The notes: generated by a model from the sequence alone, not told the origin. A stretch of DNA of 20,947 nucleotides from Leptolyngbyaceae cyanobacterium (GCA_965263355.1 CBDHHL010000004.1:1-20947); one strand, 5' to 3'. Shown: positions 1-14,675, counted from the first letter of the stretch. Numbers and translations: made by a program.

Positions 1-574
1 CCTGCTGAGCAATTCTTAGTCCATTAGCCCTATTTTCAATTTCAAGAGATATTTTCTCTGATTCTTCTATTCGTCCAACCTCTTGCATGACTCGACAAAG
101 TCTATCACCAGAGTAATCCAGTAATACTTCTTCTTTGACTTCACCACAAAAATAATAGGACAAAAAGAAATCTAAACCTCGCTCATCAAAAATTCGTGCA
201 ATCGCATCTAGACCTGGAACAACTCTGCCCATATCGTCAAGAAATTGTTCTCCGAGCAACAAATACTTAATTTCGTACTCTAAATCAAGCTCATAAGTGT
301 TCTGAATGACATGCAGAAAAAACTGGGAATAAGTACATATCCAGTTGTAGTAATGCTCTGACTCCCAATGTCCAGAGACAGCAGACCAAAGTGATCGCAG
401 AAGAAATACAGCTTCTCGAAGTGCTTCAGTAGTATTTTTCTGTTGTATTTGCTTTATATACTCAATAGCCTTTATTACAATCTGAGGATCACCGTATCTT
501 AATCCGAAGTGTTCGTATGTCTCGGTAAGAGCCTCTTCGCGTGTGTAAATTAGTATTCCGTCGATGTATTCCAT
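1..574 (-). CDS. Hypothetical protein (3'-truncated by window edge), cassette-like gene directly downstream of the group II intron/attI-like site
   Basis: Manual translation from ATG at 574 is open for 191 codons to the window start (MEYIDGILIYTREEALTETYEHFGLRYGDPQIVIKAIEYIK...NRANGLRIAQQ). AT-rich; no family recognised. Absent from the ORF track because its stop is outside the window. Confidence 0.75.
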   Translation of the reverse strand, partial: MEYIDGILIYTREEALTETYEHFGLRYGDPQIVIKAIEYIKQIQQKNTTEALREAVFLLRSLWSAVSGHWESEHYYNWICTYSQFFLHVIQNTYELDLEYEIKYLLLGEQFLDDMGRVVPGLDAIARIFDERGLDFFLSYYFCGEVKEEVLLDYSGDRLCRVMQEVGRIEESEKISLEIENRANGLRIAQQ

Positions 575-621
575 AACTTCATAACTTTACGCAAGATGGC
601 TTTAGATTGCCATGATTTTGT

Positions 622-1388
622 CTCGGGTAAGGAAGCAGGTTTTAAATATATCCCGCTTCCTCCCCTCAGAACCGTACGTACAACTTTCACTGTATACGGC
701 TCAAGCAATGTCTTGAAATTCAGTTTTTCCGATTCTTAACAACCTTTTCAGATTGTCCTGATGGTTACGTTTACAAGCCGAAGCTTGCACCTAACTTTTC
801 CCAATCAGTTAAGTTTCATCTCACCTTCATTCAAGTCCATCACCTATCCCACGTCAGCCCCCTTTCAGGTTGGGCAAATGCCCTATCTGCCCCGTTATGA
901 ATTCCGGTTGCCTTTCGGCTGGCAGCTTTCGCTTCTTGGGATATCCTGTGCCCGCTAGAGAGTTCAGCTTTGGTTGCCCTCCGCTTACCTGGAAAATAAA
1001 GTATTTTCAGGACTCTATCGGGGTTTCCTCGTTCCGCACGGGGTGGAGATATGATTGCTTTAGGATTCCTCTTTACTCCGAGAGCGGGATGTTCTGATTG
1101 GCATTTAGACGCTACCAACCCCCATATGCTCCAATATTCTCGTATCAGCCATTTCGAGAACTCACATTAACGAAGCCTCATCAAGGATTCACTTGCGTTA
1201 TCCTTAGCAATCTTGCCCTAGCCTGCACCCTCTTGTTGGCTCAGAAGATACTGCGACATTTAACCTCGTCTGCTGATGCTGCCCTCCCATTACTGGTCGA
1301 ACATTCCGAGGCGGACATCCGCCTGAACACTGGCGGGGAGAGTCATTTGGGAGTCTCTCCAACTCCCCCGAACGACTTCGAGTCGCGC
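622..1388 (-). mobile_element. ORF-less group II intron (IIB / chloroplast-like type)
   Basis: 5' end GCGCGACTCGAAGTCG at 1388 (GUGYG variant). Canonical 34-nt domain V GAGCCGTATACAGTGAAAGTTGTACGTACGGTTC (702-669) with AGC triad, GAAA loop and AC bulge. Domain VI hairpin GGGGAGGAAGCGGG...CCTGCTTCCTT-A-CCC with bulged A at 628. EBS1 GTCTAA (1110-1105) in a hairpin loop pairs with exon TTAGAC; EBS2 TGTGAGTT (1166-1159) pairs with exon AACTCATA. No RT ORF. The 3' boundary (622 vs 620) is uncertain. Confidence 0.93.
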
Positions 1389-1408
1389 GTCTAACTATGA
1401 GTTATCCA
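1389..1408 (-). other. attI-like tyrosine-recombinase simple site (also the intron target, IBS2/IBS1)
   Basis: Minus strand reads TGGATAAC TCATA GTTAGAC: a GTTRRRY core plus an inverted TAAC box, with 7 nt between TAA and TTA, the same geometry as attI1 (CCCTAA-AACAAAG-TTAGG). Functional identity is inferred. Confidence 0.55.
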
Positions 1409-1531
1409 GACTAAGTCTGGATAAATACCTTCCAGCCGGAGTTATCCAGAAACTTTCTGGATAAACACCTTATAAGCAATTAACCCAGAAACTTTCTGGA
1501 TAATACCCCCAGAGTCGGAGTTATCCAGAAA
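1399..1531. repeat. Tandem palindromic repeat array 1, ~40-bp period, 3.5 units of TTATCCAGAAACTTTCTGGATAA
   Basis: Units begin at about 1401, 1441, 1480 and 1520 (last one partial). Each has a 23-bp inverted repeat; linkers are ~17 nt and partly variable. Confidence 0.9.
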
Positions 1532-1746
1532 GCTTTAACCTCGCTTTAATAGTTCAAATAAACTATTGAGCCATCTACCAAGACTTATCGTGAGTGTGAT
1601 GTTTTAGGGGGTCGCTAAGACTATCCTTGTTCGATGGGGTCAATATCTACCGTTTTTGACGGTTAAACCAGTGAAATGAGCATTTTTCCGGCCAGAAGCA
1701 TCTCCTCAGTGCCTTGATAACAGCGTGATACAGCCCATTTGCTAGC

Positions 1747-1776
1747 TTGACGAAAGCCTAACCCCCGGTCTAAAGT
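1747..1776 (+). promoter_or_regulatory. Putative sigma70-type promoter for the structured leader/small ORF
   Basis: TTGACG (1747-1752), 18-nt spacer, TAAAGT (1771-1776), upstream of the hairpin-rich leader. Confidence 0.3.
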
Positions 1777-1784
1777 AACCCAAT

Positions 1785-1992
1785 GCTGCAAGTGCAGCTG
1801 TTCTACTAGAACCTAATAACTTGGCACCATCGGCAGGTGCTCGCAACACCTAACCGATGGCTGACCCGCGGATTACCTAGCAATCCTTGGGATGGGCTTA
1901 TTATGCCTCAGCCCCTGCGATTTGCCATGCATCGCGGGGGCTGAGCCGTTAGGTTCTGGCTTTCCTTGTCGTTTCTCTGGAGAACCAGAACC
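1785..1992 (+). promoter_or_regulatory. Highly structured 5' leader (candidate cis-regulatory RNA)
   Basis: Hairpins at 1827-1860 (CCATCGGCAGGTG...CACCTAACCGATGG) and 1907-1945 (15-bp stem). The hairpin at 1952-1992 occludes the GGAG RBS. An alternative pairing is possible between 1808-1816 and 1949-1957. Confidence 0.55.
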
Positions 1993-2232
1993 ATGTTTCA
2001 AGACCCAACCCAGGGCGCATCAGCGCTCACCCGTCAGCCTGACCCGCTACCAGAATCTTCCTACGAAATGGGACGACATCTGCTGCTGGGCAGTTTGACC
2101 TTTGTGCAGACCACCATCAAGCTGCTGCATAAACTCAACTACACTGAGCCCAACGACTGGAGCCGTCCGCTACCCACCGGACGACCCAATGAGGTGATGG
2201 CGATTTTGACTAAAAAAGTGAAGATTAGCTAG
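1993..2232 (+). CDS. Small conserved-type cyanobacterial hypothetical protein (79 aa)
   Basis: ATG at 1993 with GGAG at 1979-1982. The motif RHLLLGS...TIKLLHKLNYTEPNDWSRPLPTGRPNEVMAILTK resembles a small cyanobacterial protein family I recall; not verified by search. Confidence 0.7.
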   Translation: MFQDPTQGASALTRQPDPLPESSYEMGRHLLLGSLTFVQTTIKLLHKLNYTEPNDWSRPLPTGRPNEVMAILTKKVKIS

Positions 2233-2238
2233 GGCGAT

Positions 2239-2266
2239 GCGATCGCATCTGAGCAGGTGCGATCGC
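2239..2266. repeat. Paired HIP1 sites forming a hairpin (possible terminator)
   Basis: GCGATCGC at 2239-2246 and 2259-2266 within GCGATCGCATCTG-AG-CAGGTGCGATCGC, immediately after the stop at 2232. Confidence 0.6.
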
Positions 2267-2282
2267 TCTGAATATCTACCGC

Positions 2283-2545
2283 TTACAAACAATCTTCAGC
2301 CAACACACAAACAAGCACCAAGGCAATGTGTATAAATGGCAAGATAGAGATAGAGGCAACAACAACTGCAATCAGACTGACAGCTATTCTGCTTGAATCT
2401 AAAAACTCTGCTGGTGTAATAGCATTTATGCCAAACTGCTCAATACCCACAAAATCACGAGTTACGAGCCATGCTGGGTTGGTGATTGTCAGTGTGGATG
2501 CGATTTCACTTTGAGCTGATTCTGCATGAACTTTCTGATGAGGCT
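2283..2545 (-). pseudogene. Possible PIN-domain-like gene fragment
   Basis: Open frame without a good start encoding ...AWLVTRDFVGIEQFGINAITPAEFL..., reminiscent of the PIN C-terminal motif (IVTR..DF...I.TP.EFL), followed by a hydrophobic tail. Confidence 0.25.
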
Positions 2546-2604
2546 ACTATCACTGAGAATATTACTATCATTAACTCTAATATCCGGAGGTTAAACGGAC
2601 AACG

Positions 2605-3171
2605 ATGCCCCAAGATAATTCCTCGAGCGCTCTCCAACAGAAGATGGCTTCTCTAAAACAAGCCCTAGCAGAGTCACAGGCTGAAGTACAAGCACTCAAG
2701 CAAAACAATATTGCATTACATACTTTAAACCAAGAACTTGAGCAGCAAGTTCTCACCTGAGTAAACAAGGTACAACAATTACAGACATCTCACTCATCAC
2801 CTATTCCAGAAAATATTAGGCTTGCCCTCGGTACCTCACTAGCTTCACTAGCCCATGACATCATGAAACCATTAAGTTTTCTAATAGGTAATACACAATT
2901 TGTACAAGACAGCATTCGAGAACTGTTTACCGTAATTGATTTGTATCAAAAGGCATTTCCCAATCCAGGCAAAGACCTTGAAGAATCAATCGAGGCCCTT
3001 GATTTAGAGTTTCTCCGTGATGATATCCCAAGACTATTCTCTTCAATACAGCTAGGTTTTCAGAGTGTCGAAAAAGCCGTTAAGCAGCTCAGAGGGTTGT
3101 CTAGCACCGATTATATATCCACACTCCTTCAGACTTTTGATGAACAGCCAGATAACCCAACCAGACCCTAA
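2605..3171 (+). pseudogene. Degenerate histidine kinase fragment (coiled coil + HisKA, no HATPase) with an in-frame TGA
   Basis: GGAGG at 2586-2590, ATG at 2605. TGA at 2758-2760 interrupts an otherwise continuous frame to 3171 containing LGTSLASLAHDIMKPLSFLIGN...LYQ..FP.P...LDLEFLRDDIPRL, which matches the cyanobacterial HisKA pattern LGQLVAGVAHEINNP...DLPKL. Confidence 0.75.
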
Positions 3172-4354: not shown

Positions 4355-5455
4355 CTACCTATTATTATCCAGTTGTTTAGGTAGACGTCCCATGGCATCA
4401 ATAAACAACGCGACCAGTTCATCCGTTGTCACCCTGGTTTGCTTCTGAGATGACATCGCGTTTTCCCCCTGATTAAACAAATCATTGGGTCTATATCCCT
4501 GGGCCAGTAGCTGATCCTGAATAAAAATCAGCCGTTTAGCCGCCTGGTGTTCTCCCCATTGATTCAGCATCAAGATAACACCCGCTAACGTCCCCAGGGG
4601 ATTCGCTATGCCTCTTCCTGCAATGTCCGGGGCAGTACCATGCACCGCCTCATACATACCAAAGCCATCGGCATTTAAACTGGCCGAGCCCAACAGACCA
4701 ATCGAGCCAACCAATGCCCCCCCTAAATCACTGAGAATATCGCCAAACAAATTACCAGCCAAAACCACATCAAACGTTTGGGGCCGCATCACCAGCTGCA
4801 TCGCCAGGTTATCCACCAACATGGGTTCTACCACAATATCGGGAAATGCCTGGGCTTCCGCCTGCACCAATTGACTCCAGGGTAAATTAGGCAATGCATT
4901 TTCCTTGTGGGCGACGACCAGGTGCCGCCGACGGTGTTGAGCATAGCGTAGCGCCACCCTAGCAATTCGCCGAATTTCGGCATCGGCATAGTCCATGGTG
5001 TGAAACCCATAGGCCCCCCGCTGATCGCTGCCCCGCCCCGAGGCACCAAAGTAAATGCCACTGACCAACTCACGGACAAACAAGAGATCCACCCCTGCCA
5101 GGCGGTCTGCCTTAATGGGAGAAACCTCCTGCAGGCTGGGCGATGGTCGCACAGGGCGTAGATTGATAAAGAAATCAAAATGTCGTCGCAGTTCCAACAA
5201 ACCACCACGGGTGACTGCGCCAAATAAAATACCGTCAGAGCCCTCACAGAGCGCCAGGGTTTCTGGCGGCAGGGGCTGCCCAAATTTTTGTCGTGCTGGT
5301 TCTCCGATCCAACCGCGCTCAATGGTGAGGGTAAATCCTTCCTGATCCGCCAGTGCCTGCAAAATGGTTAGACTTGCCTCTACTACTTCCGGTCCAATCC
5401 CTTCACCTGGTAAGGCCACAATCCGATAGTGGCGTTCAGCACCATGACGACTCAT
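4355..5455 (-). CDS. Isocitrate/isopropylmalate family beta-decarboxylating dehydrogenase (atypical LeuB-like)
   Basis: LPGEGIGPEV, NLRP, RELVSGIYFG, VDN, NLFGDILSD and EAVHGTAPDIAGRGIANP. The start overlaps the PKS stop (ATGA at 5455-5452). Confidence 0.9.
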   Translation of the reverse strand: MSRHGAERHYRIVALPGEGIGPEVVEASLTILQALADQEGFTLTIERGWIGEPARQKFGQPLPPETLALCEGSDGILFGAVTRGGLLELRRHFDFFINLRPVRPSPSLQEVSPIKADRLAGVDLLFVRELVSGIYFGASGRGSDQRGAYGFHTMDYADAEIRRIARVALRYAQHRRRHLVVAHKENALPNLPWSQLVQAEAQAFPDIVVEPMLVDNLAMQLVMRPQTFDVVLAGNLFGDILSDLGGALVGSIGLLGSASLNADGFGMYEAVHGTAPDIAGRGIANPLGTLAGVILMLNQWGEHQAAKRLIFIQDQLLAQGYRPNDLFNQGENAMSSQKQTRVTTDELVALFIDAMGRLPKQLDNNR

Positions 5456-8400
5456 GTGGCCGCCACCGTTTTGAGAATCATCAGTTCATCTGCGATGGTC
5501 TGCACCGTATGTCGAATTTGTTCTTCTGTATGCAAAGAACTGACAAAGAATCGCAGTCGGGCTGCATCGTAGGGCACCGATGGATACACCATGGGCTGTA
5601 CGTTAATGCCCTGCTGGAATAGGGTATGGCATAACTGCACCGCTTTGTAGGGTTCACCCACAATCACCGGGATAACTGGGGAGTCGTGGCTATCCCCTGT
5701 ATTGAGGCCATGGTCTTTAGCTAGGGAAAGGAATAGTTGCGATCGCTCCTGCCCCTGCTTCACCCGTTCAGGCTCCTGCTGAATAATCCGCAATGACTCT
5801 AACGCTGCCGCCGCATTGGCGGGCGACATACCCACGCTAAACACAAACCCAGGAGCCGTATATTTCAGATATTCCACCAGGGCTGCACAACCTGCAATAT
5901 AGCCACCACAGCTGGCAAAGGTCTTGCTCAATGTACCCATCCATAAATCCACACTGGCGGCCACCACCTCAAAGTGCTCGCCCACACCGCGTCCCGTTTT
6001 GCCCAATACCCCAATTGAATGGGCCTCATCCACCAAAAGCATTGCCTTATGGGCCGTTTTCACCCGAATAAAGTCCGGTAGCGGAGCCAGGTCACCATCG
6101 GTACTGTAAACCCCTTCAATGGTGACCAACACTTTTTCATAGTGGCGACGGTGTTCGCATAGCAATTGATCCAGCGCTTGCCAATCATTGTGGGGAAACT
6201 CGATCATCGTTGCCCCCGAGAGCCGACAGCCCTCTCGAATACTGTTGTGACTCAGAGCATCGTAGAGAATCAGATCTTTTTCTCGGAAGAGATGACCAAT
6301 GGTGGTGACATTGGTAGCATGGCCACCGATATAGGTAATACAATCTTCTGTGCCTAAAAACTGGGCTAACCCCTGTTCTAGCTGACGGTGGAGGGGGCGC
6401 TCACCAGACGACACTCGGCTCGCTGACACAGAGGTACCATATTGGCTAATGGCCGACTGCGCGGCAGAATTCACCCGAGGATCGCCCGATAGGCCTAAAT
6501 AGTTATAGCTAGAGTAGTTAATTAACGATTGACCATTAATTTCCGTCGTATCCTTCGCAGTGCCCCCATGGACCATAAAGAAGGGATTGCCTAACCCTTC
6601 TACCCGATCCAGGTCCTGCCGCAAGCGGCGATAGTCAGCCATTTGAGAGAACTGGTAATGTTCCGGTGGTGGTGTATAGGTGGGTGTGTTTAGTCTCGGT
6701 GGAACTTCTTTAATCACTGTTTTGACATTCTCTTGTTTGGGAGCATGCATAACTATAGGAGATGGTTTTGGGCTTACCTCGGGGGTAGCGCCCTTCGTTG
6801 TTGGTGCAGGAACTGTTTGGTCGATGCTTTCTGTAACCGTTACCATAGGCAGTACAGGGGCAATATCTTGTACCAAATAGTTGGCCAGAGAATTAATGGA
6901 GGGATAGTCAAAGGCCAGGGTTTGGGACACTGGATGATTGAGATTCTTTTGCAGACGGTTGGTAAATTCAACTGCCATGAGAGAATCCATCCCCAGATCG
7001 CCAAACTGTTCGTCGGGGTCAATGGCATCGGCAGTCGTAAAGCCCATCACCTTAGCCAGCTGTGCTTGTAGGTAGGTGGCCAATATCGCTGAGCGTTCAC
7101 CGTCGGACGTTTTTGCCAGCTGTTGCAAGATTTCAGGATTGGTCGCAGTGCCTTTAGATGTCTCGGTCACCGCAGGCATTAACGCCGTTAATAAGGGAGA
7201 ACTGGCACCACTGGCCTGACCACTGGCTGAGTTTATAAACTTAGCCCAGTCCATGGGGATAATGCCGACCTGGGCCCTGGCTTGACGCATCATTTGGCTC
7301 ATCAGTTGCAGTCCCAAGTCTGTCGGAATGGGGGTTAACCCTTGCTCTGTAAAGCGCTGCTGGCTACGGTCATCTAGCTGGGCGACCATCCCTGCATCGG
7401 CCCAGGGACCCCAGTTGAGGCTAAGGCCCGGTAACCCAAGGCTACGGCGATATTGGGCGAATCCATCTAAAAATGCATTGGCCGCTGCGTAGTTACCCTG
7501 GCCGAGGGAACCCATAAGAGACACCATGGAGGAGAAACAAACAAAGTGATCCAGGTCATGTTTTTGGGTCAGCATATGTAGGTTCCATGCACCCGTCAGC
7601 TTAGGAGCCATGACGGCATTAAACTGTTGCCAAGACTGATTGACTAGCAAGCCGTCTGCGAGAGTCCCTGCGAGATGGAAAATTCCCTTAAGTGGCCTAG
7701 AGTTTTTGGCAGAGAGTAGCGGAGAGAGCACTGTTTTGAGTGTGTCTAAATCAGCAACATCTGCCTGAATGACTTGAACTGTAACATCCTTTTTTTGGAG
7801 TTGATCAATAGTTTGCTGAGCCATCTCAGAGGGGGCTCGTCGGCTCAACAGAATGAGCTGACGGGTGCCCTGGTCTGCTAGCCACTGGGCTATGGTTAAC
7901 CCCAATGCACCTAAACCGCCGGTTACAAGATAGGTCGCGTTGGGGTGAATTAGGGATTGGCGGGGTGCGATCGCAGGCAGGGTTAACACCACTTTGCCCA
8001 CATGCCGGGCCTGGGCCATATAGCGAAATGCATCAACAGCCGCTTCAATGGGAAAGACTGTTTTGGGCAATGGGTATAGCGTCTTTGCCTCAAACTCCGC
8101 CATTAAGTGGGTCAAGATGTTGGCAATCAGCTGTGGCTCTGCATCGGAAATATCTAACAGATCAAAGGGAAAATACGCCACATCGGGTCGGGCCGCTTGC
8201 ATTTGTTCAGGTTCCCAGACACCGATTTTGCCAATTTCCACAAATCGTCCCTGGGGTGCTAAGACCTCTAGGCTTTTATCAATAAAGTCTCCATTTAAGC
8301 TGTTAAATACGACATCCACCCCCTGCCCATCGGTGATTGTCAGAATCTCCTCGGCAAAGTCCAAGGTGCGAGAATTCATCACATGGTGAATTCCCATGGA

Positions 8401-11400
8401 TTGTAAAAAGGACCATTTGGGAGGACTCGCGGTTGCAAAAATCTCTGCCCCAATTTGCTGGGCGATTTGCACCACTGCCTGACCCACCCCCCCGGCAGCA
8501 GAGTGGATCAAGATTCGATCGCCCGCTTTGAGCTGCGCACAGTGCACCAGCCCATAGTAAGCCGTTAGAAACGTAGTCGGTACCGTTGCTGCCTCGGCAA
8601 AATCGAGTGTGGAAGGTTTGAGCACCAAAAAGTCCGTGGGCACCGTCACAAATTGACTCAATGTTCCCAGGGTCTGGGCCAGGACCACTTCATCACCTAC
8701 TTGTAATGTGGTCACATCAGGTCCCACAGCCGTGATCACCCCTGCGCATTCTCCACCAAACGGCACGTCCTCGGGGGTGGCAAATCCCATGGCTTCGGCC
8801 ACTGCCTGCAATAGTCCCAGGGCATTTAATACATCACGAAAGTTAAGCCCAGCTGCCTTGACCTGAATCTCTACTTCTCCCGATTGAGGAGCCTGTCGTT
8901 CTGTTGGCATCAGGGTGAGATGATCGAGCACACCGTAGCTGGTCAGACCCACGCGAAATGAATCAGCCTTGGGAATCTCTAATAACGGTTGGGAGGCAGC
9001 TGCTGTAGGGGCAACCAATCGTGCTACAAAGCGATTGTCTTGATGATACGCAATCTGGTCTTCATTATCTGGGTAACACAGATCATCTAGTAGCATCTCC
9101 CAGGTGGGGGCAGTGAGCACCTGGGGCAGATCCAAACAAGTACAGGCCAGATGGGGTTGTTCTAACCGTAGGCTGCGGGCCAGACCCCATAAGGGCATTT
9201 GCTGCAGCTGTACTGAGGACTGTACTTCTACCGCCTGAGTTGCCTGGGTAATTAACCATAGCCGAGCCGATAAGGCAGGCATCTGAGCCAGGGCCAACAC
9301 CAAATGCAGTAAACCACCACAGTTCTGTTGTTGGTCTACGAGGGTGACTTGTTCTTGAGCCGTATCTAATGCCCAAAGATAACCAATCTGACAGTTTAGT
9401 TTTCCCTGCTGTTCGGCAATCAGTGTTGGTAATAAATCGGTAAATAATTGGTCAAAGTCGTCTGGCTTTGACGGATTTAACCTGTAGATATTGTCCTCTA
9501 ACGAGGCCTGATATTGTTCTCCAGCTTGAATTATAAAGCAGCGATTACCTTGTTCACGTAAAGCAGTGGCCAGCCTATTGCCAATCCCTTGGGTATCTGT
9601 AAACAATAGCCAGGTGGCATTATCTGTAGTCGATGTTTGGGGTGCTTTGGTGTGGGGTTGCCAGGTCAGGCTATAGACCCAGTCTTGCCCAACCACTTGG
9701 GGCGACGGCTGCAGCTTGGGTGTCCCGACTAACTGTTTGAGGGCATCATGTTTAACATATTGCAAAGTCATGCCAGTCATCTGGGCGGCCAAGGAGCCTG
9801 TGTCATCCCAAATTAATACATTGGCTTTGAGGGTTTTGACAGTGGCTCCGTTCTTCTGTTCAGGCGGTTGCAATCGTACCCAGCACCACCCTGTAGACCT
9901 GAGGGGACGATAGAAATGGAGCTGGTCTATGCCGACTGGCAAATAGGTTCCCAGGGAGACGTCAGCCTTGACCGCTGCGCCAATGGTTTGAAAACAACCA
10001 TCCAAAAGTGTTGGATGCAGACAATAGGCATTGCTCCTGGGGGTATCAGTCATCTGTAAATGACTGAGAGACTGGTCGTCATGTTGCCAAAGTTGTTGAA
10101 TGGTACGAAAGTGAGGGCCATAGTTTAAGCCCTGCTCGCTGAGTGCCTGGTAGTAGCTGTCTACCGCCACTGGATAGGGCAGCAACGATGTCTGGAGAGA
10201 GGCTAATGACACGGACGGAGCGGTAATCTGGCTTAGGGAGGTGACGCCGGCAGTGGCATGGCGAGTAAATGTGGCATCCTCTATATTGTTTAAGCTAAAG
10301 ACTTGGACAGTGCCTGTTTCCTGTTCTCCCGGTGTCAATACCAATTGTAGAGCTGTAGAGCTGTTCTCAGATAAGGTGAGGGGACGTTCAATGGTTACTT
10401 GGGTCAAGGTGATGGCCTCACTGTTGTGCCAGCGGCAGGCGGCTGCGATCGCACCCTCCACATAGGCCGCCCCCGGTAAAATAACCTGATCTAGTACCTG
10501 ATGATCCTTGAGGTAGCCAGGTCGCTGAGGACTAATCTCACTTTGGTAGCGCTGTTTTGTTGTGCCTGCCAACAACAACCGTTGCCCAATCAACGGATGA
10601 TCGGTAGACATTGCCATAGCTGATACAGGGGCTGCTGGCCGCATGGCCGGAATGGGCGGACCTGACCACCAGTAGCGCTGTCGCTGAAATGGATAGGTGG
10701 GCAGAGTGATGCCAGCACCAGACCGATGAGGAAATATCTCAGCCCAATTAATGGTTGCTCCTTGGGTGTATAGGGCTGCCAGACTAGTTAACAGGCCTGC
10801 CTGCTCTGCCTGGTTTGGACGCAGGCTGGGCAGCCACTGTATATCTTCCACATTGGGCAAACAGCTACGCGCCATACCCAACAAAATTGGCTTAGCCCCA
10901 ATTTCTAAAAAGATGCGTTCCTCTCGTGTACCAAGCGTTTTTACTGCATCTAAACACTTAACGGGTTGGCGCACATGGCTGACCCAATAATCAGCGGTGG
11001 CAATTTCGTCACTGGCCAAGTCCCCCGTTAGCATTGAGATAATTGGCAGTGTGGGTAGTTGAAATGTAATCGATTCTGCCACCTGGCGAAACTCATCTAA
11101 CATGGGCTCCATCAGGGCTGAATGGAAGCCATGGGAAACCGTCAGTTGCTTATGCTGGATGCCTTTAGCCTCAAACTGTTGGATCAGGTTAGCAATCGCC
11201 TCCGCTGTGCCAGAAATTACCGTGCTTTGAGGGCTATTGATGGCTGCGATCGCAGCCCCATATTCCTCTACATAGGGTCTACACTGCTCTACATCTGCCA
11301 TTACAGAGACCATAGCCCCCTCTGCTGGCAATGCTTGCATCAAGCGTCCGCGTTCAGCAATTAACCGCAGGCCGTCTTCCAGACTAAACACCCCTGCTAC

Positions 11401-13329
11401 ACAGGCGGCTACATACTCCCCGAGGCTATGGCCCATCACAACAGTGGGCCAAATTCCCCAAGATTGCCACAGCTGCGCTAAGGCATATTCAAACGCAAAG
11501 AGAACCGGTTGTGTATAGATGGTATCGTCAATGGTGTATTCTGCTGGACCCTTGCGGTACAAAATCTCTATCAAAGGCACATGATAGGATTTTAGAATCT
11601 CCGCACAGCGATTTAAAGCCTCTCGAAACACAGATTGGGTCTCATAGAGTTCTTTGCCCATGCCCACGGATTGAGAGCCCTGCCCCGTAAAGAGAAAGGC
11701 AACATCATCGGCAGTGGATGACTGCCTCGAAACCGCCATGCCTGCTGTTTCTTGTTCGCTGAGCCAGTTCGTTAACTGTGTTTTTAACTGATTGCTGGAT
11801 TCGCTAACGCAGGCTAGCCGATGAGAGAAATGAGAGCGCCGAAGGCTGGCAGCTGCACATAGCTCTCCCACATCTAGATCAGATTGTTCGTCTAATAATT
11901 TGACATAACGCTCTGCTGTTACTCTTAACGCATTACGTCCCTTGGCAGATAGGACTAATAGATGAGGGTGAAGAACATCTAGATTGGTTTTATCTCTCTC
12001 TGGAACCATATCAGAGAGAACAACATGGGCATTGGTACCACCAAACCCAAAGGAATTGATTCCGATATAGGTGGTTTGGGTATCGCCATCTTGAGAAACT
12101 CTCTTTGGTAAAGGGGCTAACTCGGTCTGCACCCGTAATCGCAATTGTTCAAAATTAATCGCGGGATTTGGCTGATAGCAATGGAGACTTGGCGGCATCT
12201 CACGATGTTTTAACATTAGTGCCGCTTTAATCAAACCAGCTACCCCAGCCGCCGTCTCCGTATGGCCGATATTTGTTTTAACTGAACCAATTAGACAAAC
12301 ATCATCCGCTGCTCGTCCCGGCGACAGAACAGCTCCCAAGGCCTGGGCTTCAATGGGATCACCCAGCTTAGTCCCGGTGCCATGGGCCTCCACGTACTGC
12401 ACCGCTGTCGGATCAATATTAGCCTGACGATAGGCGGCTTGAATCACGGCAGTCTGCGCTGTAGCACTTGGGGCTGCCATCCCTTGACTGCAACCATCTT
12501 GATTAACCGCACTACCACGAATCACCGCATAGATAGAATCATCATCCGCTAAGGCCTGGGCCAGGGGTTTTAACACCACCAAACCTGCCCCTTCGCTACG
12601 TACATAGCCATCAGCACTGGCATCAAAGCTTTTACAACGGCCATTGCTCGACATAAAGCCACCTTTCGCAAACCCAGCCGTGACCGTTGGCAACAGCAGC
12701 ACATTGACACCACCGGCAATCGCCACCCTCGACTCCCCTGCCCACAGGCTTTGGCAGGCCAGATGAACGGCCACCAGGGAAGATGAACAAGCCGTATCCA
12801 CTGCCAGACTGGGTCCTTTAAAGTCAAATAAATAGGAAATCCGATTGGCTGCGATACAGTTACCGGTCCCCGTGGTTGCATAGGGATCATTGACTGGTTG
12901 CTGCCACAGCATAATCGAGTAGTCATGGGTACCAATGCCAATAAACACCCCCGTTTGTGACCCGCGCAAAGTGTCAGGAATGTGGCCTGCATCTTCCAGT
13001 GCTTCCCAGGTCACCTCCAGTAAGAGACGCTGCTGGGGATCCATGGTGGTCACTTCCCGAGGCGCAATGCCAAAAAACTGTGGGTCAAACTGATCGACCT
13101 GGGATAAAAAGCCACCCCAGCGAGTATTGGCCTTATCGGGGACAGTCGGGTCAGGATCGTAAAACTTATCCACGTCCCAACGGCTTTCAGGGACTTCCGT
13201 CACACAATCCTGGCCATTGCGCATCATTTGCCAAAAGGCGTCGGGCGTATCTGCCCCTCCGGGATAACGGCATCCAATACCAATGATCGCGATCGGCTCA
13301 GGGGATACAGAAGGGCGAGAAGCACTCAT
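5452..13329 (-). CDS. Type I PKS fused to alpha-oxoamine synthase: KS-AT-DH-ER-KR-ACP-AONS/SPT-like
   Basis: KS: DTACSSS, HGTGT, NIGH. AT: GHSLGE, HGFHS (malonyl-type). DH: HQVLDQVILP, LLDGCFQ. ER: IHSAAGGVG. KR: TGGLGALG, GQGNYAAAN. ACP: LGMDSL. PLP domain: SYNYLGL, SHNSI, EGVYSTDGD, DEAHS, GTLSK. The probable start is ATG 13329 (MSASRPSVSPEPIAIIG) rather than 13464. Confidence 0.95.
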   Translation of the reverse strand: MSASRPSVSPEPIAIIGIGCRYPGGADTPDAFWQMMRNGQDCVTEVPESRWDVDKFYDPDPTVPDKANTRWGGFLSQVDQFDPQFFGIAPREVTTMDPQQRLLLEVTWEALEDAGHIPDTLRGSQTGVFIGIGTHDYSIMLWQQPVNDPYATTGTGNCIAANRISYLFDFKGPSLAVDTACSSSLVAVHLACQSLWAGESRVAIAGGVNVLLLPTVTAGFAKGGFMSSNGRCKSFDASADGYVRSEGAGLVVLKPLAQALADDDSIYAVIRGSAVNQDGCSQGMAAPSATAQTAVIQAAYRQANIDPTAVQYVEAHGTGTKLGDPIEAQALGAVLSPGRAADDVCLIGSVKTNIGHTETAAGVAGLIKAALMLKHREMPPSLHCYQPNPAINFEQLRLRVQTELAPLPKRVSQDGDTQTTYIGINSFGFGGTNAHVVLSDMVPERDKTNLDVLHPHLLVLSAKGRNALRVTAERYVKLLDEQSDLDVGELCAAASLRRSHFSHRLACVSESSNQLKTQLTNWLSEQETAGMAVSRQSSTADDVAFLFTGQGSQSVGMGKELYETQSVFREALNRCAEILKSYHVPLIEILYRKGPAEYTIDDTIYTQPVLFAFEYALAQLWQSWGIWPTVVMGHSLGEYVAACVAGVFSLEDGLRLIAERGRLMQALPAEGAMVSVMADVEQCRPYVEEYGAAIAAINSPQSTVISGTAEAIANLIQQFEAKGIQHKQLTVSHGFHSALMEPMLDEFRQVAESITFQLPTLPIISMLTGDLASDEIATADYWVSHVRQPVKCLDAVKTLGTREERIFLEIGAKPILLGMARSCLPNVEDIQWLPSLRPNQAEQAGLLTSLAALYTQGATINWAEIFPHRSGAGITLPTYPFQRQRYWWSGPPIPAMRPAAPVSAMAMSTDHPLIGQRLLLAGTTKQRYQSEISPQRPGYLKDHQVLDQVILPGAAYVEGAIAAACRWHNSEAITLTQVTIERPLTLSENSSTALQLVLTPGEQETGTVQVFSLNNIEDATFTRHATAGVTSLSQITAPSVSLASLQTSLLPYPVAVDSYYQALSEQGLNYGPHFRTIQQLWQHDDQSLSHLQMTDTPRSNAYCLHPTLLDGCFQTIGAAVKADVSLGTYLPVGIDQLHFYRPLRSTGWCWVRLQPPEQKNGATVKTLKANVLIWDDTGSLAAQMTGMTLQYVKHDALKQLVGTPKLQPSPQVVGQDWVYSLTWQPHTKAPQTSTTDNATWLLFTDTQGIGNRLATALREQGNRCFIIQAGEQYQASLEDNIYRLNPSKPDDFDQLFTDLLPTLIAEQQGKLNCQIGYLWALDTAQEQVTLVDQQQNCGGLLHLVLALAQMPALSARLWLITQATQAVEVQSSVQLQQMPLWGLARSLRLEQPHLACTCLDLPQVLTAPTWEMLLDDLCYPDNEDQIAYHQDNRFVARLVAPTAAASQPLLEIPKADSFRVGLTSYGVLDHLTLMPTERQAPQSGEVEIQVKAAGLNFRDVLNALGLLQAVAEAMGFATPEDVPFGGECAGVITAVGPDVTTLQVGDEVVLAQTLGTLSQFVTVPTDFLVLKPSTLDFAEAATVPTTFLTAYYGLVHCAQLKAGDRILIHSAAGGVGQAVVQIAQQIGAEIFATASPPKWSFLQSMGIHHVMNSRTLDFAEEILTITDGQGVDVVFNSLNGDFIDKSLEVLAPQGRFVEIGKIGVWEPEQMQAARPDVAYFPFDLLDISDAEPQLIANILTHLMAEFEAKTLYPLPKTVFPIEAAVDAFRYMAQARHVGKVVLTLPAIAPRQSLIHPNATYLVTGGLGALGLTIAQWLADQGTRQLILLSRRAPSEMAQQTIDQLQKKDVTVQVIQADVADLDTLKTVLSPLLSAKNSRPLKGIFHLAGTLADGLLVNQSWQQFNAVMAPKLTGAWNLHMLTQKHDLDHFVCFSSMVSLMGSLGQGNYAAANAFLDGFAQYRRSLGLPGLSLNWGPWADAGMVAQLDDRSQQRFTEQGLTPIPTDLGLQLMSQMMRQARAQVGIIPMDWAKFINSASGQASGASSPLLTALMPAVTETSKGTATNPEILQQLAKTSDGERSAILATYLQAQLAKVMGFTTADAIDPDEQFGDLGMDSLMAVEFTNRLQKNLNHPVSQTLAFDYPSINSLANYLVQDIAPVLPMVTVTESIDQTVPAPTTKGATPEVSPKPSPIVMHAPKQENVKTVIKEVPPRLNTPTYTPPPEHYQFSQMADYRRLRQDLDRVEGLGNPFFMVHGGTAKDTTEINGQSLINYSSYNYLGLSGDPRVNSAAQSAISQYGTSVSASRVSSGERPLHRQLEQGLAQFLGTEDCITYIGGHATNVTTIGHLFREKDLILYDALSHNSIREGCRLSGATMIEFPHNDWQALDQLLCEHRRHYEKVLVTIEGVYSTDGDLAPLPDFIRVKTAHKAMLLVDEAHSIGVLGKTGRGVGEHFEVVAASVDLWMGTLSKTFASCGGYIAGCAALVEYLKYTAPGFVFSVGMSPANAAAALESLRIIQQEPERVKQGQERSQLFLSLAKDHGLNTGDSHDSPVIPVIVGEPYKAVQLCHTLFQQGINVQPMVYPSVPYDAARLRFFVSSLHTEEQIRHTVQTIADELMILKTVAAT

Positions 13330-13424
13330 GCGGGCTAAGGGATGTACAGCAGACAGGGTTGAATAAACTGGACTAAATGTAAAAGACCCTTTATTGGAAG
13401 TCAACGGTTGACTGGGTGGGCATT

Positions 13425-14675
13425 CTACCCCATGGCAGAGCTGCTTAAACTCTCCTGTTGCCAAATATTGAGTAACTTATTCACAACCCCCTTCCAACTG
13501 TAATCAGCCATAGCCTGCTGGCCTTGTTGCCCTAAAGTTTTGCGCCACGGTTCATCGGCCAATAGGCGGGTGAGCGATTGCCCAAAACTCACCACATCTT
13601 GCGGTTGAAATAGCAGTCCATTCTGCTCTGGTTGAATGAGGGTGGTCACTCCACCTGCATCCGGGGCCAGTACTGGAATGCCAGCGGCAAATGCCTCCAT
13701 TACTGTCAATCCAAAGGTTTCTTTTTCAGACGCGGTCACATGGATATCACTATTGACCAGTAGGGCAGGTACTTCGTCTGGAGAAATGCGCCCCAACATA
13801 TGAACGTCCAGACCTAATGTCTGTAGCCCGTGATAAACTTCGTTTTTCAGTTCGCCATCCCCGGCAATGACGATGGTTACCCGTTTAACCCAGAGGGCAT
13901 TGTTTGGCTCGTTGACCCAATGGGCAAAGGCTTTTAAGGTAAAACGCCAGCCTTTGTCGGGGGTTAAGCGCCCTAGAAATGTTAGTGTCAGGCTATCCTG
14001 AGGTGCTTCAATGCCATACTGGGTCTGAAAAAAATCGGGCTGACGCTGCAGGGGTTGGAATTTGCTAAGGTCCACACCGAGTAAGCGATCGCACATCACA
14101 TTCCGCAACCCCAACTGCTCTACCCGTGCCTGGGTCACCGGGCTGGAGACCAAAATCGCATCATAGGCATGGAATACGGGCCGCATCACCAACATAGAAG
14201 CCCACTGGAGCAGGGCAATCAGCCAGCCTGGTAGAGGAAAAAAATCCTCAATGTAGTCAATAAAATTTGTATGATAAAAGCCTATACAGGGAATGCCCAG
14301 GGCTTTAGCGTAGGTCACTCCCGGTGCCTGCAATAGTCCTAAAAACAGGCGATCCGGTTCATCCACATGGATTACATCTGGGCCAAATGCCTGCAGTGCC
14401 TGATGTAATCCAGACCGAGCCTGCAGGTTCATATTGCGCTCAAATGCAACCCCCATAAAGGGTTCACTGGGCAAGTTTACCACCTGCACCCCCGGCAAAA
14501 TGTCGCCTTGAAACTCACGCCAGTTGGGATAAACCGCTTCTATGGGCTGGTAGTCAGGACAGAGTACTAATACCTGATGACCTAGTTCGCTCAGGACTCG
14601 CAATCGTTGAGCTAGTGACACCGTCACTCCATCGACAACGGGAAAAAATCCAGAACTTATAATCGCAATTTTCAT
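13425..14675 (-). CDS. Glycosyltransferase family 4 (GT-B, SqdX/PimA-like lipid glycosyltransferase)
   Basis: MKIAIISSGFFPVVDGV, FYHT, GRLTPDKG and ETFGLTVMEAFAAGIPV (EX7E motif). ATG 14675 is preferred over GTG 14687. Confidence 0.9.
   Translation of the reverse strand: MKIAIISSGFFPVVDGVTVSLAQRLRVLSELGHQVLVLCPDYQPIEAVYPNWREFQGDILPGVQVVNLPSEPFMGVAFERNMNLQARSGLHQALQAFGPDVIHVDEPDRLFLGLLQAPGVTYAKALGIPCIGFYHTNFIDYIEDFFPLPGWLIALLQWASMLVMRPVFHAYDAILVSSPVTQARVEQLGLRNVMCDRLLGVDLSKFQPLQRQPDFFQTQYGIEAPQDSLTLTFLGRLTPDKGWRFTLKAFAHWVNEPNNALWVKRVTIVIAGDGELKNEVYHGLQTLGLDVHMLGRISPDEVPALLVNSDIHVTASEKETFGLTVMEAFAAGIPVLAPDAGGVTTLIQPEQNGLLFQPQDVVSFGQSLTRLLADEPWRKTLGQQGQQAMADYSWKGVVNKLLNIWQQESLSSSAMG

Follow-up and report, generated by a model that had tools for sequence, protein, structure and literature searches.

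The DNA analysed here is a 20,947-nt stretch from a Leptolyngbyaceae cyanobacterium (hereafter the window), and it carries a group II intron without an ORF, seated directly behind a site of the integron attI type (Table 1). Downstream of the intron the window holds 620 nt only. The first ORF on that side is a probable integron cassette gene: it shares 79% identity with a gene further along contig L101, which has the same attI type as the window, and 25% (E 1e-6) with the ORF that comes first behind the attI in L076. The remaining window encodes a 2670-aa polyketide synthase with an aminotransferase domain, glycosyltransferases, a GGDEF/EAL protein and a PagL-like protein, and looks like ordinary cyanobacterial chromosome. 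A search of 401 genomes of the phylum with the isocitrate/isopropylmalate dehydrogenase-like protein of the window returned no syntenic locus and nothing above 68% identity.

Table 1. Position of the intron, its target site and neighbouring features in the window
Feature	Position	Strand	Basis or remark
First ORF 3' of the intron, open at the window edge (191 aa or more)	2..574	minus	no Pfam/NCBIfam family
ORF-less group II intron, IIB1-like ribozyme, domains I to VI	620 (or 622)..1388	minus	Rfam, homology, fold
Domain VI, bulged A at 628	621..666	minus	RF00029 alignment
Domain V, catalytic hairpin with AGC triad	669..702	minus	34 nt identical to 24 cyanobacterial loci
EBS1 GTCTAA, hairpin loop with covarying stem	1105..1110	minus	six Watson-Crick pairs with TTAGAC
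EBS2 region	1159..1169	minus	8-nt EBS2 TGTGAGTT 1166-1159; canonical EBS2 1167-1163, EBS2a 1169
IBS1 TTAGAC	1394-1389	minus	
IBS2 AACTCATA	1403-1396	minus	
attI-type simple site	1389..1407	minus	GGATAAC-TCATA-GTTAGAC, layout as in L118, L101, L111 beside intI
R box GTTAGAC	1395-1389	minus	
Spacer TCATA	1400-1396	minus	
L box GGATAAC	1407-1401	minus	
attI-type region, three and a half copies of TTATCCAGAAAGTTTCTGGATAAC at about 40-bp spacing	1389..1570	minus	homology to intI-adjacent arrays
Conserved flank in the expected place of intI	1546..2270		85-87% identity over 728 nt to L085, L098, L083
88-aa ORF within the conserved flank	1966-2232	plus	no family match

The intron starts with GCGCGAC at 1388, abutting GTTAGAC, and the 5' exon immediately before it reads ...TCTGGATAACTCATAGTTAGAC. 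Its length is 769 nt when the end is placed by homology (620) and 767 nt with an end at 622. The Rfam model RF00029, which describes domains V and VI, matched 704-620 on the minus strand with 63.1 bits and an E value of 1.6e-10 (gathering score 40), and was the sole Rfam family above threshold across the whole window. At permissive thresholds, the search returned domains V/VI, weak plastid domain V matches and chance miRNA-like matches on palindromes, and the D1-D4 subclass and class C families gave no match in the window. An ORF scan found no ORF longer than 98 aa overlapping the intron, the two longest overlapping ORFs contained no Pfam family, and domain IV is a short hairpin only. The RNAalifold consensus of five ORF-less copies comprises 234 pairs, and compensatory changes occur in 37. 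Of the 234, the window intron retains 227 and the four relatives retain 223-230. The ribozyme is real and structurally intact. The earlier note on this DNA had described a complete ORF-less ribozyme of about 767 nt after GTTAGAC. Its group II assignment was borne out by both the Rfam search and the covarying fold, with the 3' end lying at either 620 or 622. The range it gave (622..1408) covers a real element, but this element lies on the minus strand and the range takes in 20 nt of 5' exon.

Both ends of the intron were compared with those of its relatives. The group II boundary rule is 5'-GUGYG...AY-3', from which the window intron departs, starting with GCGCG and ending ...GAGAC. The GCGCG start in place of GUGYG is a family trait and not a peculiarity of the window: the intron begins with GCGCGAC in 32 of 33 distinct 5' junctions and with GCGCAAC in the other one. 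The introns of the relatives terminate in AC. Their 3' ends read ...CCCGA followed directly by C in 25/25 cases, three of them with a one-base variant. The window reads ...CCCGAGAC, with an extra GA at 621-622 relative to all 25 relatives (alignment columns 819-820), and the distance from the branch A to the homologous end is 9 nt instead of the 7 nt found in 25/25 relatives. A cut after 622 restores the 7-nt spacing, but the intron would then terminate in AG; a cut after 620 retains the terminal AC of the family. Judged from this alignment, the window has gained two bases or its splice site has shifted, which leaves the 3' splice site ambiguous. The ligated exons expected for the alternative 3' ends are GTTAGAC|AAAATC or GTTAGAC|ACAAAATC. 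One base at 1094 is also absent from the window compared with sequencing run X1 and the relatives. Because of the two extra 3' bases and this missing base, the window intron may be a decaying copy. Given the 2-nt anomaly, its present-day splicing and mobility appear uncertain.

Relatives were sought by matching the exact 34-nt domain V against a collection of species-representative genomes. The 24 loci obtained all came, by their titles, from filamentous cyanobacteria, including Leptolyngbya, Nodosilinea, Alkalinema, Leptothoe, Phormidesmis, Acaryochloris and other genera. Full-length ORF-less relatives (L002, L007, L008a and L020) share 80-85% identity with the window intron, and in L008b, L014, L022 and L023 the matching ribozyme is interrupted by an ORF of about 1.7 kb. 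The encoded protein contains RVT_N, RVT_1, GIIM (maturase) and HNH domains, and among solved proteins it is closest to that of T.el4h (6ME0_C, E 2e-132, full length). T.el4h is classed as IIB1/CL1 (PMC8643678). With the protein closest to that of T.el4h, the intron family is probably IIB1/CL1-like, in agreement with the ORF-less, IIB-type intron proposed earlier. All ORF-less copies have a common domain IV remnant, which suggests that they descend from one deletion lineage. In a plasmid collection only distant relatives of the intron were found, the best being an Acaryochloris plasmid intron with 67% identity.

An attI1-type site combines L and R boxes, which make up the simple site, with additional repeats bound by the integrase. 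The region upstream of the intron resembles this arrangement in its repeats, followed by an L box, a spacer and a GTTRRRY-like R box, and in the divergent intI of homologous loci. Unlike attI1, the window copy has lost intI, and its repeats are palindromic and about 40 bp apart. The repeat copies are putative integrase binding sites. The region also contains a conserved outer segment, and homology to intI-adjacent arrays ceases near 1570. The window repeat TTATCCAGAAAGTTTCTGG was found at 45 loci in a metagenome collection. Ten of them carry IntI coding sequence beside the array, the repeat lying about 100 nt from the IntI start in divergent orientation, and none of the 45 holds the intron. 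In L118, IntI residues 3-193 are followed by the outer segment and repeats seen in the window, ending ..TCTGGATAACTCATAGTTATAC|GGCATGC. Its L box, spacer and R box (..GGATAACTCATAGTTATAC) are nearly identical to those of the window and are intron-free.

No intI or IntI remnant was detected in the window by tblastn (E<=1) or by Pfam searches of 15 ORFs. The window flank and array type occur in L085, L098 and L083, which are intron-free and read ..GGATAAAGCATAGTTGTAC|CGCAAAG and ..ACATAGTAGTTAACC|TGCAAGG. Since this flank recurs beside intron-free arrays, the window is best read as holding an orphan attI of a recurrent kind of which empty versions exist. The integrase gene appears to have been replaced by other DNA. 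The attI-like target claimed in the earlier note is thus supported by the ten IntI-adjacent loci and the layout of L118, but not by an intI in the window itself. Intron-less counterparts, which the note had suggested looking for, were found in L118, as a near-identical site, and in L085, L098 and L083, as the same locus type. The array contains a promoter-like site (1527-1500, 9/12 matches), but such sites numbered 3 versus 1.6 +/- 1.4 in shuffles, which is not above chance.

Arrays occupied by other members of the family were also found to adjoin integron integrases. Integrase genes or their 5' fragments lie upstream of these arrays in divergent orientation. L008 carries at 2194-2997 (minus strand) a match to TIGR02249 of 353 bits (cut-off 265), and integrase remnants occur as N-terminal pieces in L014 and L020 and a C-terminal piece in L016. 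By tblastn, integrase sequence was located beside the arrays of L008/L026, L014, L020/L030, L027, L042 and L048, the gene in L042 being full length (333 aa). Additionally, 18 regions adjoining integrase genes or fragments were chosen blind to introns. In 17 of the 18, the integrase was found together with, where the flank reached the boundary, the same succession of array, L box, spacer and GTT. None of the 18 contained the intron, and their arrays terminate in an L box, 5-6 nt and GTTAGNC. Since intron-free intI-adjacent arrays share this layout, the heptamer with its context is a property of the site rather than of the intron. Intron-free counterparts of occupied array types were also identified (L063 and L064 for L020; L059 for L034 and L052). 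These observations support the interpretation of the occupied arrays as probable attI sites, and the association of the flank with integrases that had been anticipated was found both at the ten loci with the window repeat and, through TIGR02249, at other array types. Readings of the palindrome array as DnaA boxes, operators or Tn7-like ends were considered and dropped, integrase genes standing beside homologous arrays.

To describe the insertion sites of the family, five of the genomes with a domain V match were searched with the first 150 nt of the intron, and the first loci were added. Intron 5' ends numbered 2-21 in each of the five genomes. The set kept comprised 33 distinct 5' junctions, that of the window among them, all in filamentous cyanobacteria and each flanked by 25 nt or more; many come from genome G003 and all share common descent, so that they are not independent. 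GTT occupies positions -7 to -5 in 30 of the 33; a compilation of flanks had been suggested in the earlier note. The exceptions are L045 and L050, shifted by one base, and L046, which is different. The junction heptamers are GTTAGAC (6), GTTAGGC (6), GTTAGCC (7), GTTAGCT (3), GTTATGC (4) and a few others, and 15/33 fit GTTRRRY strictly. The first bases of the 3' exon differ among family copies.

By their surroundings, 21 junctions are attI-type, 10 are attC-type and 2 are unclear. The attI-type junctions are preceded by an array of three or four repeats at about 40-bp spacing, the last repeat leading into an L box (TCTAAT, CTGAAT or GGATAAC), a 5-6 nt spacer and a GTTAGNC box. At the attC-type junctions, an imperfect palindrome with unpaired bases in one arm extends from RYYTAAC to the GTT box. 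The occupied attC sites show the R''/L''/L'/R' layout with bulged bases. The palindrome of L035 starts with TATGAC and was counted as probably attC-type. These calls were made from inverted-repeat scores and inspection, minimum-free-energy folding being too noisy as a classifier. Taken together, the junctions showed a family that appears restricted to integron R and R' boxes.

The pairing between intron and exon was examined at the window site and in other copies. EBS1 pairs with TTAGAC perfectly (6/6), and EBS2 TGTGAGTT forms eight contiguous pairs with AACTCATA, one of them G-U. This helix covers the spacer and part of the L box. Both pairings agree with those proposed in the earlier note. 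The window EBS2 pairs better with its own exon than with the exons of any of 13 other copies, and its 8-bp helix was equalled in 136/5000 exon shuffles. For IIB1 introns, a 5-nt EBS2 pairs with positions -13 to -9 and EBS2a pairs with -14 (PMC8643678). In this register, the window forms 4/5 EBS2 pairs, with an A-T pair at IBS2a. The attI-located copies (n=10) form a mean of 4.0/5 EBS2 pairs with IBS2a Watson-Crick in 8/10, and the attC-located copies (n=4) form 2.75/5 with IBS2a Watson-Crick in 0/4, on small counts of mutually related copies.

Most copies have GTCTAA as their EBS1; four copies, all from one genome, have GGCTAA. Among the 14 copies compared, EBS1-IBS1 positions -6 to -4 are always paired and -1 is paired in all (Watson-Crick or G-U), while -3 is unpaired in two and -2 is mismatched in six. 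With this -2 mismatch (6/14), the covariation of EBS1 with IBS1 is not clean. The EBS2 segment differs between copies, and the version in the window is unique in the family. Because EBS1 is invariant except for the GGCTAA variant, only EBS2 looks tuned to the attI type of the window. The description of both elements as programmed against attI consequently appears to hold for EBS2 and not for EBS1, which is a constant of the family. In the attI-located copies L027, L032 and L036 of G003, the EBS2 helix with their own exon is no better than with the exons of others. In L008 one copy, without an ORF, sits at attI and another, with an ORF, follows the attC of the first cassette; they have a common EBS2, and it matches the attI flank only.

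The most probable explanation, in which we place considerable confidence, is that 1388-620 is a non-autonomous, ORF-less member of an IIB1/CL1-like family of filamentous cyanobacteria whose home is the attI site of chromosomal integrons. The intron RNA would read the top strand of the attI simple site through base pairing: EBS1 would pair with the part of the R box past the G|TT crossover (TTAGAC, six bases), and EBS2 together with EBS2a would pair with the spacer and the adjoining end of the L box. Insertion would take place directly 3' of the R box, in sense to cassette transcription, presumably by reverse splicing and target-primed reverse transcription. As judged from the family, the RT-maturase-endonuclease would most likely come in trans from a relative that carries the ORF, as described for the Thermosynechococcus elongatus family (PMC8643678). 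Were the intron transcribed from the attI side, splicing would remove it from the 5' leader preceding the first cassette gene (2-574).

Integron recombination crosses over at G|TT. With the crossover taken at this position, the intron would lie on the cassette side and could be carried by the integrase. The integron may then serve the intron as both vehicle and target generator, the intron riding along as the 5' end of the first cassette and each capture recreating an attI that is empty and fully matched. We put this forward tentatively and would rate it somewhat short of an even chance. If it is true, the integrase can excise, shuffle and export the intron with its cassette, and no reverse transcriptase is required. 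Each capture would push the occupied junction down the array, so that introns pile up behind attC sites. This would explain the attC-located copies without IBS2/IBS2a pairing, the EBS2 common to attI and attC copies in L008, and the presence of one ORF-less deletion lineage across many cyanobacterial genera. The attC-located copies without IBS2 pairing would be accounted for equally well by insertion through EBS1-IBS1 pairing alone.

Other explanations were also weighed. The intron may once have homed to attI and now be a dead passenger in a decayed platform, neither splicing correctly nor moving. The two extra bases between domain VI and the 3' end, with a branch A 9 nt away instead of the 7 nt of 25 relatives, agree with such decay, as do the one-base difference at 1094 from run X1 and the relatives, the missing intI and the lack of a helper ORF within the window. 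The ribozyme, however, has kept its helices as its relatives have (227/234), its domain V is identical to that of 24 other loci, EBS1 and EBS2 match the flank, and splicing after 622 would bring the branch A back to a distance of 7 nt. We consider a dead intron possible, though on balance rather doubtful. The intron could also have entered the cassette elsewhere and arrived as its 5' end through the integrase acting at G|TT. With the insertion point on the cassette side, 6 nt past the crossover, intron and cassette would make up a single recombination unit, and ten junctions follow attC R' boxes, the four testable ones without IBS2/IBS2a pairing. An origin elsewhere is nevertheless unlikely for the window copy: its family-unique EBS2 can pair with the spacer and L box of this attI type, on the attI side of the crossover, a helix that chance yields in 136/5000 shuffles, and L118 has the same AACTCATA without an intron.

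The array itself might not belong to an integron and could represent an operator array, iterons or a transposon end, with GTTAGAC kept by the demand of EBS1 alone. The window has no intI, and no attC is seen in the 620 nt downstream of the intron. In the DNA available per locus, 35/45 metagenome loci with the repeat have no IntI match, the array is multi-copy in run X1, and only 15/33 heptamers fit GTTRRRY strictly. Against this, the repeat stands about 100 nt from a divergent IntI start in 10/45 loci, other array types occupied by the family likewise adjoin integrases, and intron-free intI-adjacent arrays also terminate in an L box, 5-6 nt and GTTAGNC. The family is also found behind attC sites with the R''/L''/L'/R' layout and bulged bases. 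An array foreign to integrons is highly improbable on this evidence.

Group II introns have been linked to integrons before. The IIC-attC introns (e.g., S.ma.I2) insert into the attC bottom strand, antisense to the cassettes, and recognize a stem-loop with a 3-4 bp EBS1 and no EBS2, their proteins having no En domain (PMC7923331, PMC4424553). Like them, the present family is a lineage specialised on integron recombination sites with copies within cassette arrays. It differs in using the top strand in sense orientation after an R or R' box, in its 6-bp EBS1 with EBS2/EBS2a, in being IIB1-like with an HNH protein in its relatives, and in having attI rather than attC as its best-matched site. The suggestion that the intron follows a strategy of its own, distinct from that of the class C introns at attC, is thereby supported by its use of EBS2, its sense orientation and the En-containing protein of its relatives.

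The nearest case found is UHB.I2, a IIB1/CL1 intron located just 3' of an attC on a soda-lake metagenome contig (Sonbol & Siam 2021, PMC7923331). It is the one full intron of its kind in that paper, which presents it as the first link of IIB introns with integrons and adds two class E IIB fragments, both 5'-truncated and lying in a CALIN; non-conserved flanking exons and the unusual boundaries UUGCG..GU are described (PMC7923331). The class, the cassette-sense orientation and the position directly after an integron recombination site are common to UHB.I2 and the present family. Compared by description only, they differ in that the paper reports neither a case at attI nor ORF-less forms and does not mention cyanobacteria.

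In the IIB1 family of Thermosynechococcus elongatus (Th.e.I3/T.el4h), a few ORF-bearing copies splice and mobilise many ORF-less ones in trans (PMC8643678). The present family shares with it the cyanobacterial host, the IIB1/CL1 type, the ORF-less copies and, as nearest protein, that of T.el4h, and its EBS2a-IBS2a layout fits 8/10 of the attI-located copies here. The T. elongatus family is described as colonising its own genome, the consulted portions of the source making no mention of integrons (PMC8643678). The present family, unlike it, targets a single class of site, the R boxes of integron attI and attC, in many genera. A 2015 review gives bacterial group II introns only three kinds of target, ordinary homing sites, transcription terminators and attC hairpins (PMC4424553). 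In the full-text literature searched, outside which lie subscription journals and supplements, neither this cyanobacterial family nor a group II intron at attI was found to be described. Among integron-associated group II introns, the present one is set apart by its class, strand, site and recognition mode.

Such an intron would represent a base-pairing-guided specialisation on attI, in sense orientation, by a IIB1-type intron with a large ORF-less lineage. A retroelement would thereby be coupled to a gene-capture machine at the point of entry and expression of each newly captured gene. That the relatives in other cyanobacteria nearly all sit at one and the same seven-base integron motif suggests a little-known alliance of two kinds of mobile DNA. 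The questions raised are whether introns are transferred between genomes on cassettes, whether they affect expression of the first cassette, and whether recombination between copies scatters attI sites away from integrases, as in the window. Natural IIB1 ribozymes with a defined short target may also be of use for gene targeting.

Sequencing runs provided a further view of the locus. Three runs of one organism contain 77-83% of the sampled words of the window. Among the assembled contigs of four runs, none joins both exons, a result that has no bearing on splicing or expression. The contigs of run X1 break at 623, 1389, 1440 and 1538. Added up, their depths over the intron and the array exceed those over 1-560 several-fold, in keeping with multi-copy elements. 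One X1 contig carries the array followed by unlike sequence where the intron would stand. Additionally, in one contig from RNA library X22 and one from run X4 (labelled "DNA?"), the 3' end of the family is joined directly to its 5' end.

Multiplied attI modules, cut off from their integrase, were found in three cyanobacterial genomes that hold copies of the intron family. In G001, G003 and G004 (loci L059–L076), many copies of an integrase N-terminal fragment joined to an attI array were present beside one or two full-length intI genes. The integrase fragments of G001 covered, for example, positions 1–199, 1–197, 1–95, 1–73 and 1–66 of the integron integrase profile TIGR02249. Several of the fragment and array copies are near-identical to one another (L020, L062, L063 and L064). 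Beside the attI-type array of the window, intI is replaced by other DNA. This replacement DNA was found again in three metagenome contigs at 85–87% identity, adjoining the same type of array, and it looks multi-copy in sequencing run X1. It includes an 88-aa ORF, which matched no family.

Further unusual arrangements around attI sites were observed. On metagenome contig L095, an attI array of the window type is followed by a second, inverted copy of itself that takes in the outer segment adjoining intI, and the two form a long palindrome. Two platforms arranged head to head could account for this palindrome, as could an artefact of assembly. Locus L007 is another rearranged platform, in which a transposase gene sits between an integrase fragment and an intron-occupied simple site.

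Features with their coordinates on the window and on related loci
Sequence	Position	Strand	Feature
Window	620–1391		Joint of the X22 and X4 contigs, placed between 1391 and 639/659
Window	after 1094		Extra T in X1 contigs
Window	1389–1570	−	attI-type array
Window	1546–2270		DNA replacing intI
Window	1966–2232	+	88-aa ORF
Window	5452–13464	−	Polyketide synthase
L095	1953–2283		attI array and inverted copy
L007	4959–5501		REP-associated tyrosine transposase gene (NF047646, 207 bits)
L002	~395–445 (alignment A1 columns 238–287)		50-nt palindromic insert

In one contig from each of two sequencing runs, X22 (a metatranscriptome; contig depth 12.5) and X4 (labelled "DNA?"; contig depth 6.8), the 3′ end of a family intron (...TTTACCC + GAC) was fused directly to a 5′ end (GCGCGAC) in head-to-tail orientation. 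This junction could reflect an intron circle or a tandem pair of introns at one site; it derives from relatives at at least 88% likeness, not necessarily from the intron copy of the window itself.

Small sequence oddities were detected within intron copies. After window position 1094, all X1 contig depth carried one extra T, restoring a base that other family members have in the stem region of the EBS1 hairpin. The window record may have lost one nucleotide there or been misassembled. Additionally, in one ORF-less relative, L002, the hairpin that directly follows EBS2 has a palindromic insert in its loop. This insert resembles a miniature inverted-repeat element nested inside the intron.

Elsewhere, the window encodes a polyketide synthase of 2670 aa with a single module (KS-AT-DH-ER-KR-ACP), to which a class I/II aminotransferase domain is fused. 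A gene of the isocitrate/isopropylmalate dehydrogenase family flanks it; in a search of 401 cyanobacterial genomes, the best matches to this flanking gene were only 65–68% identical.
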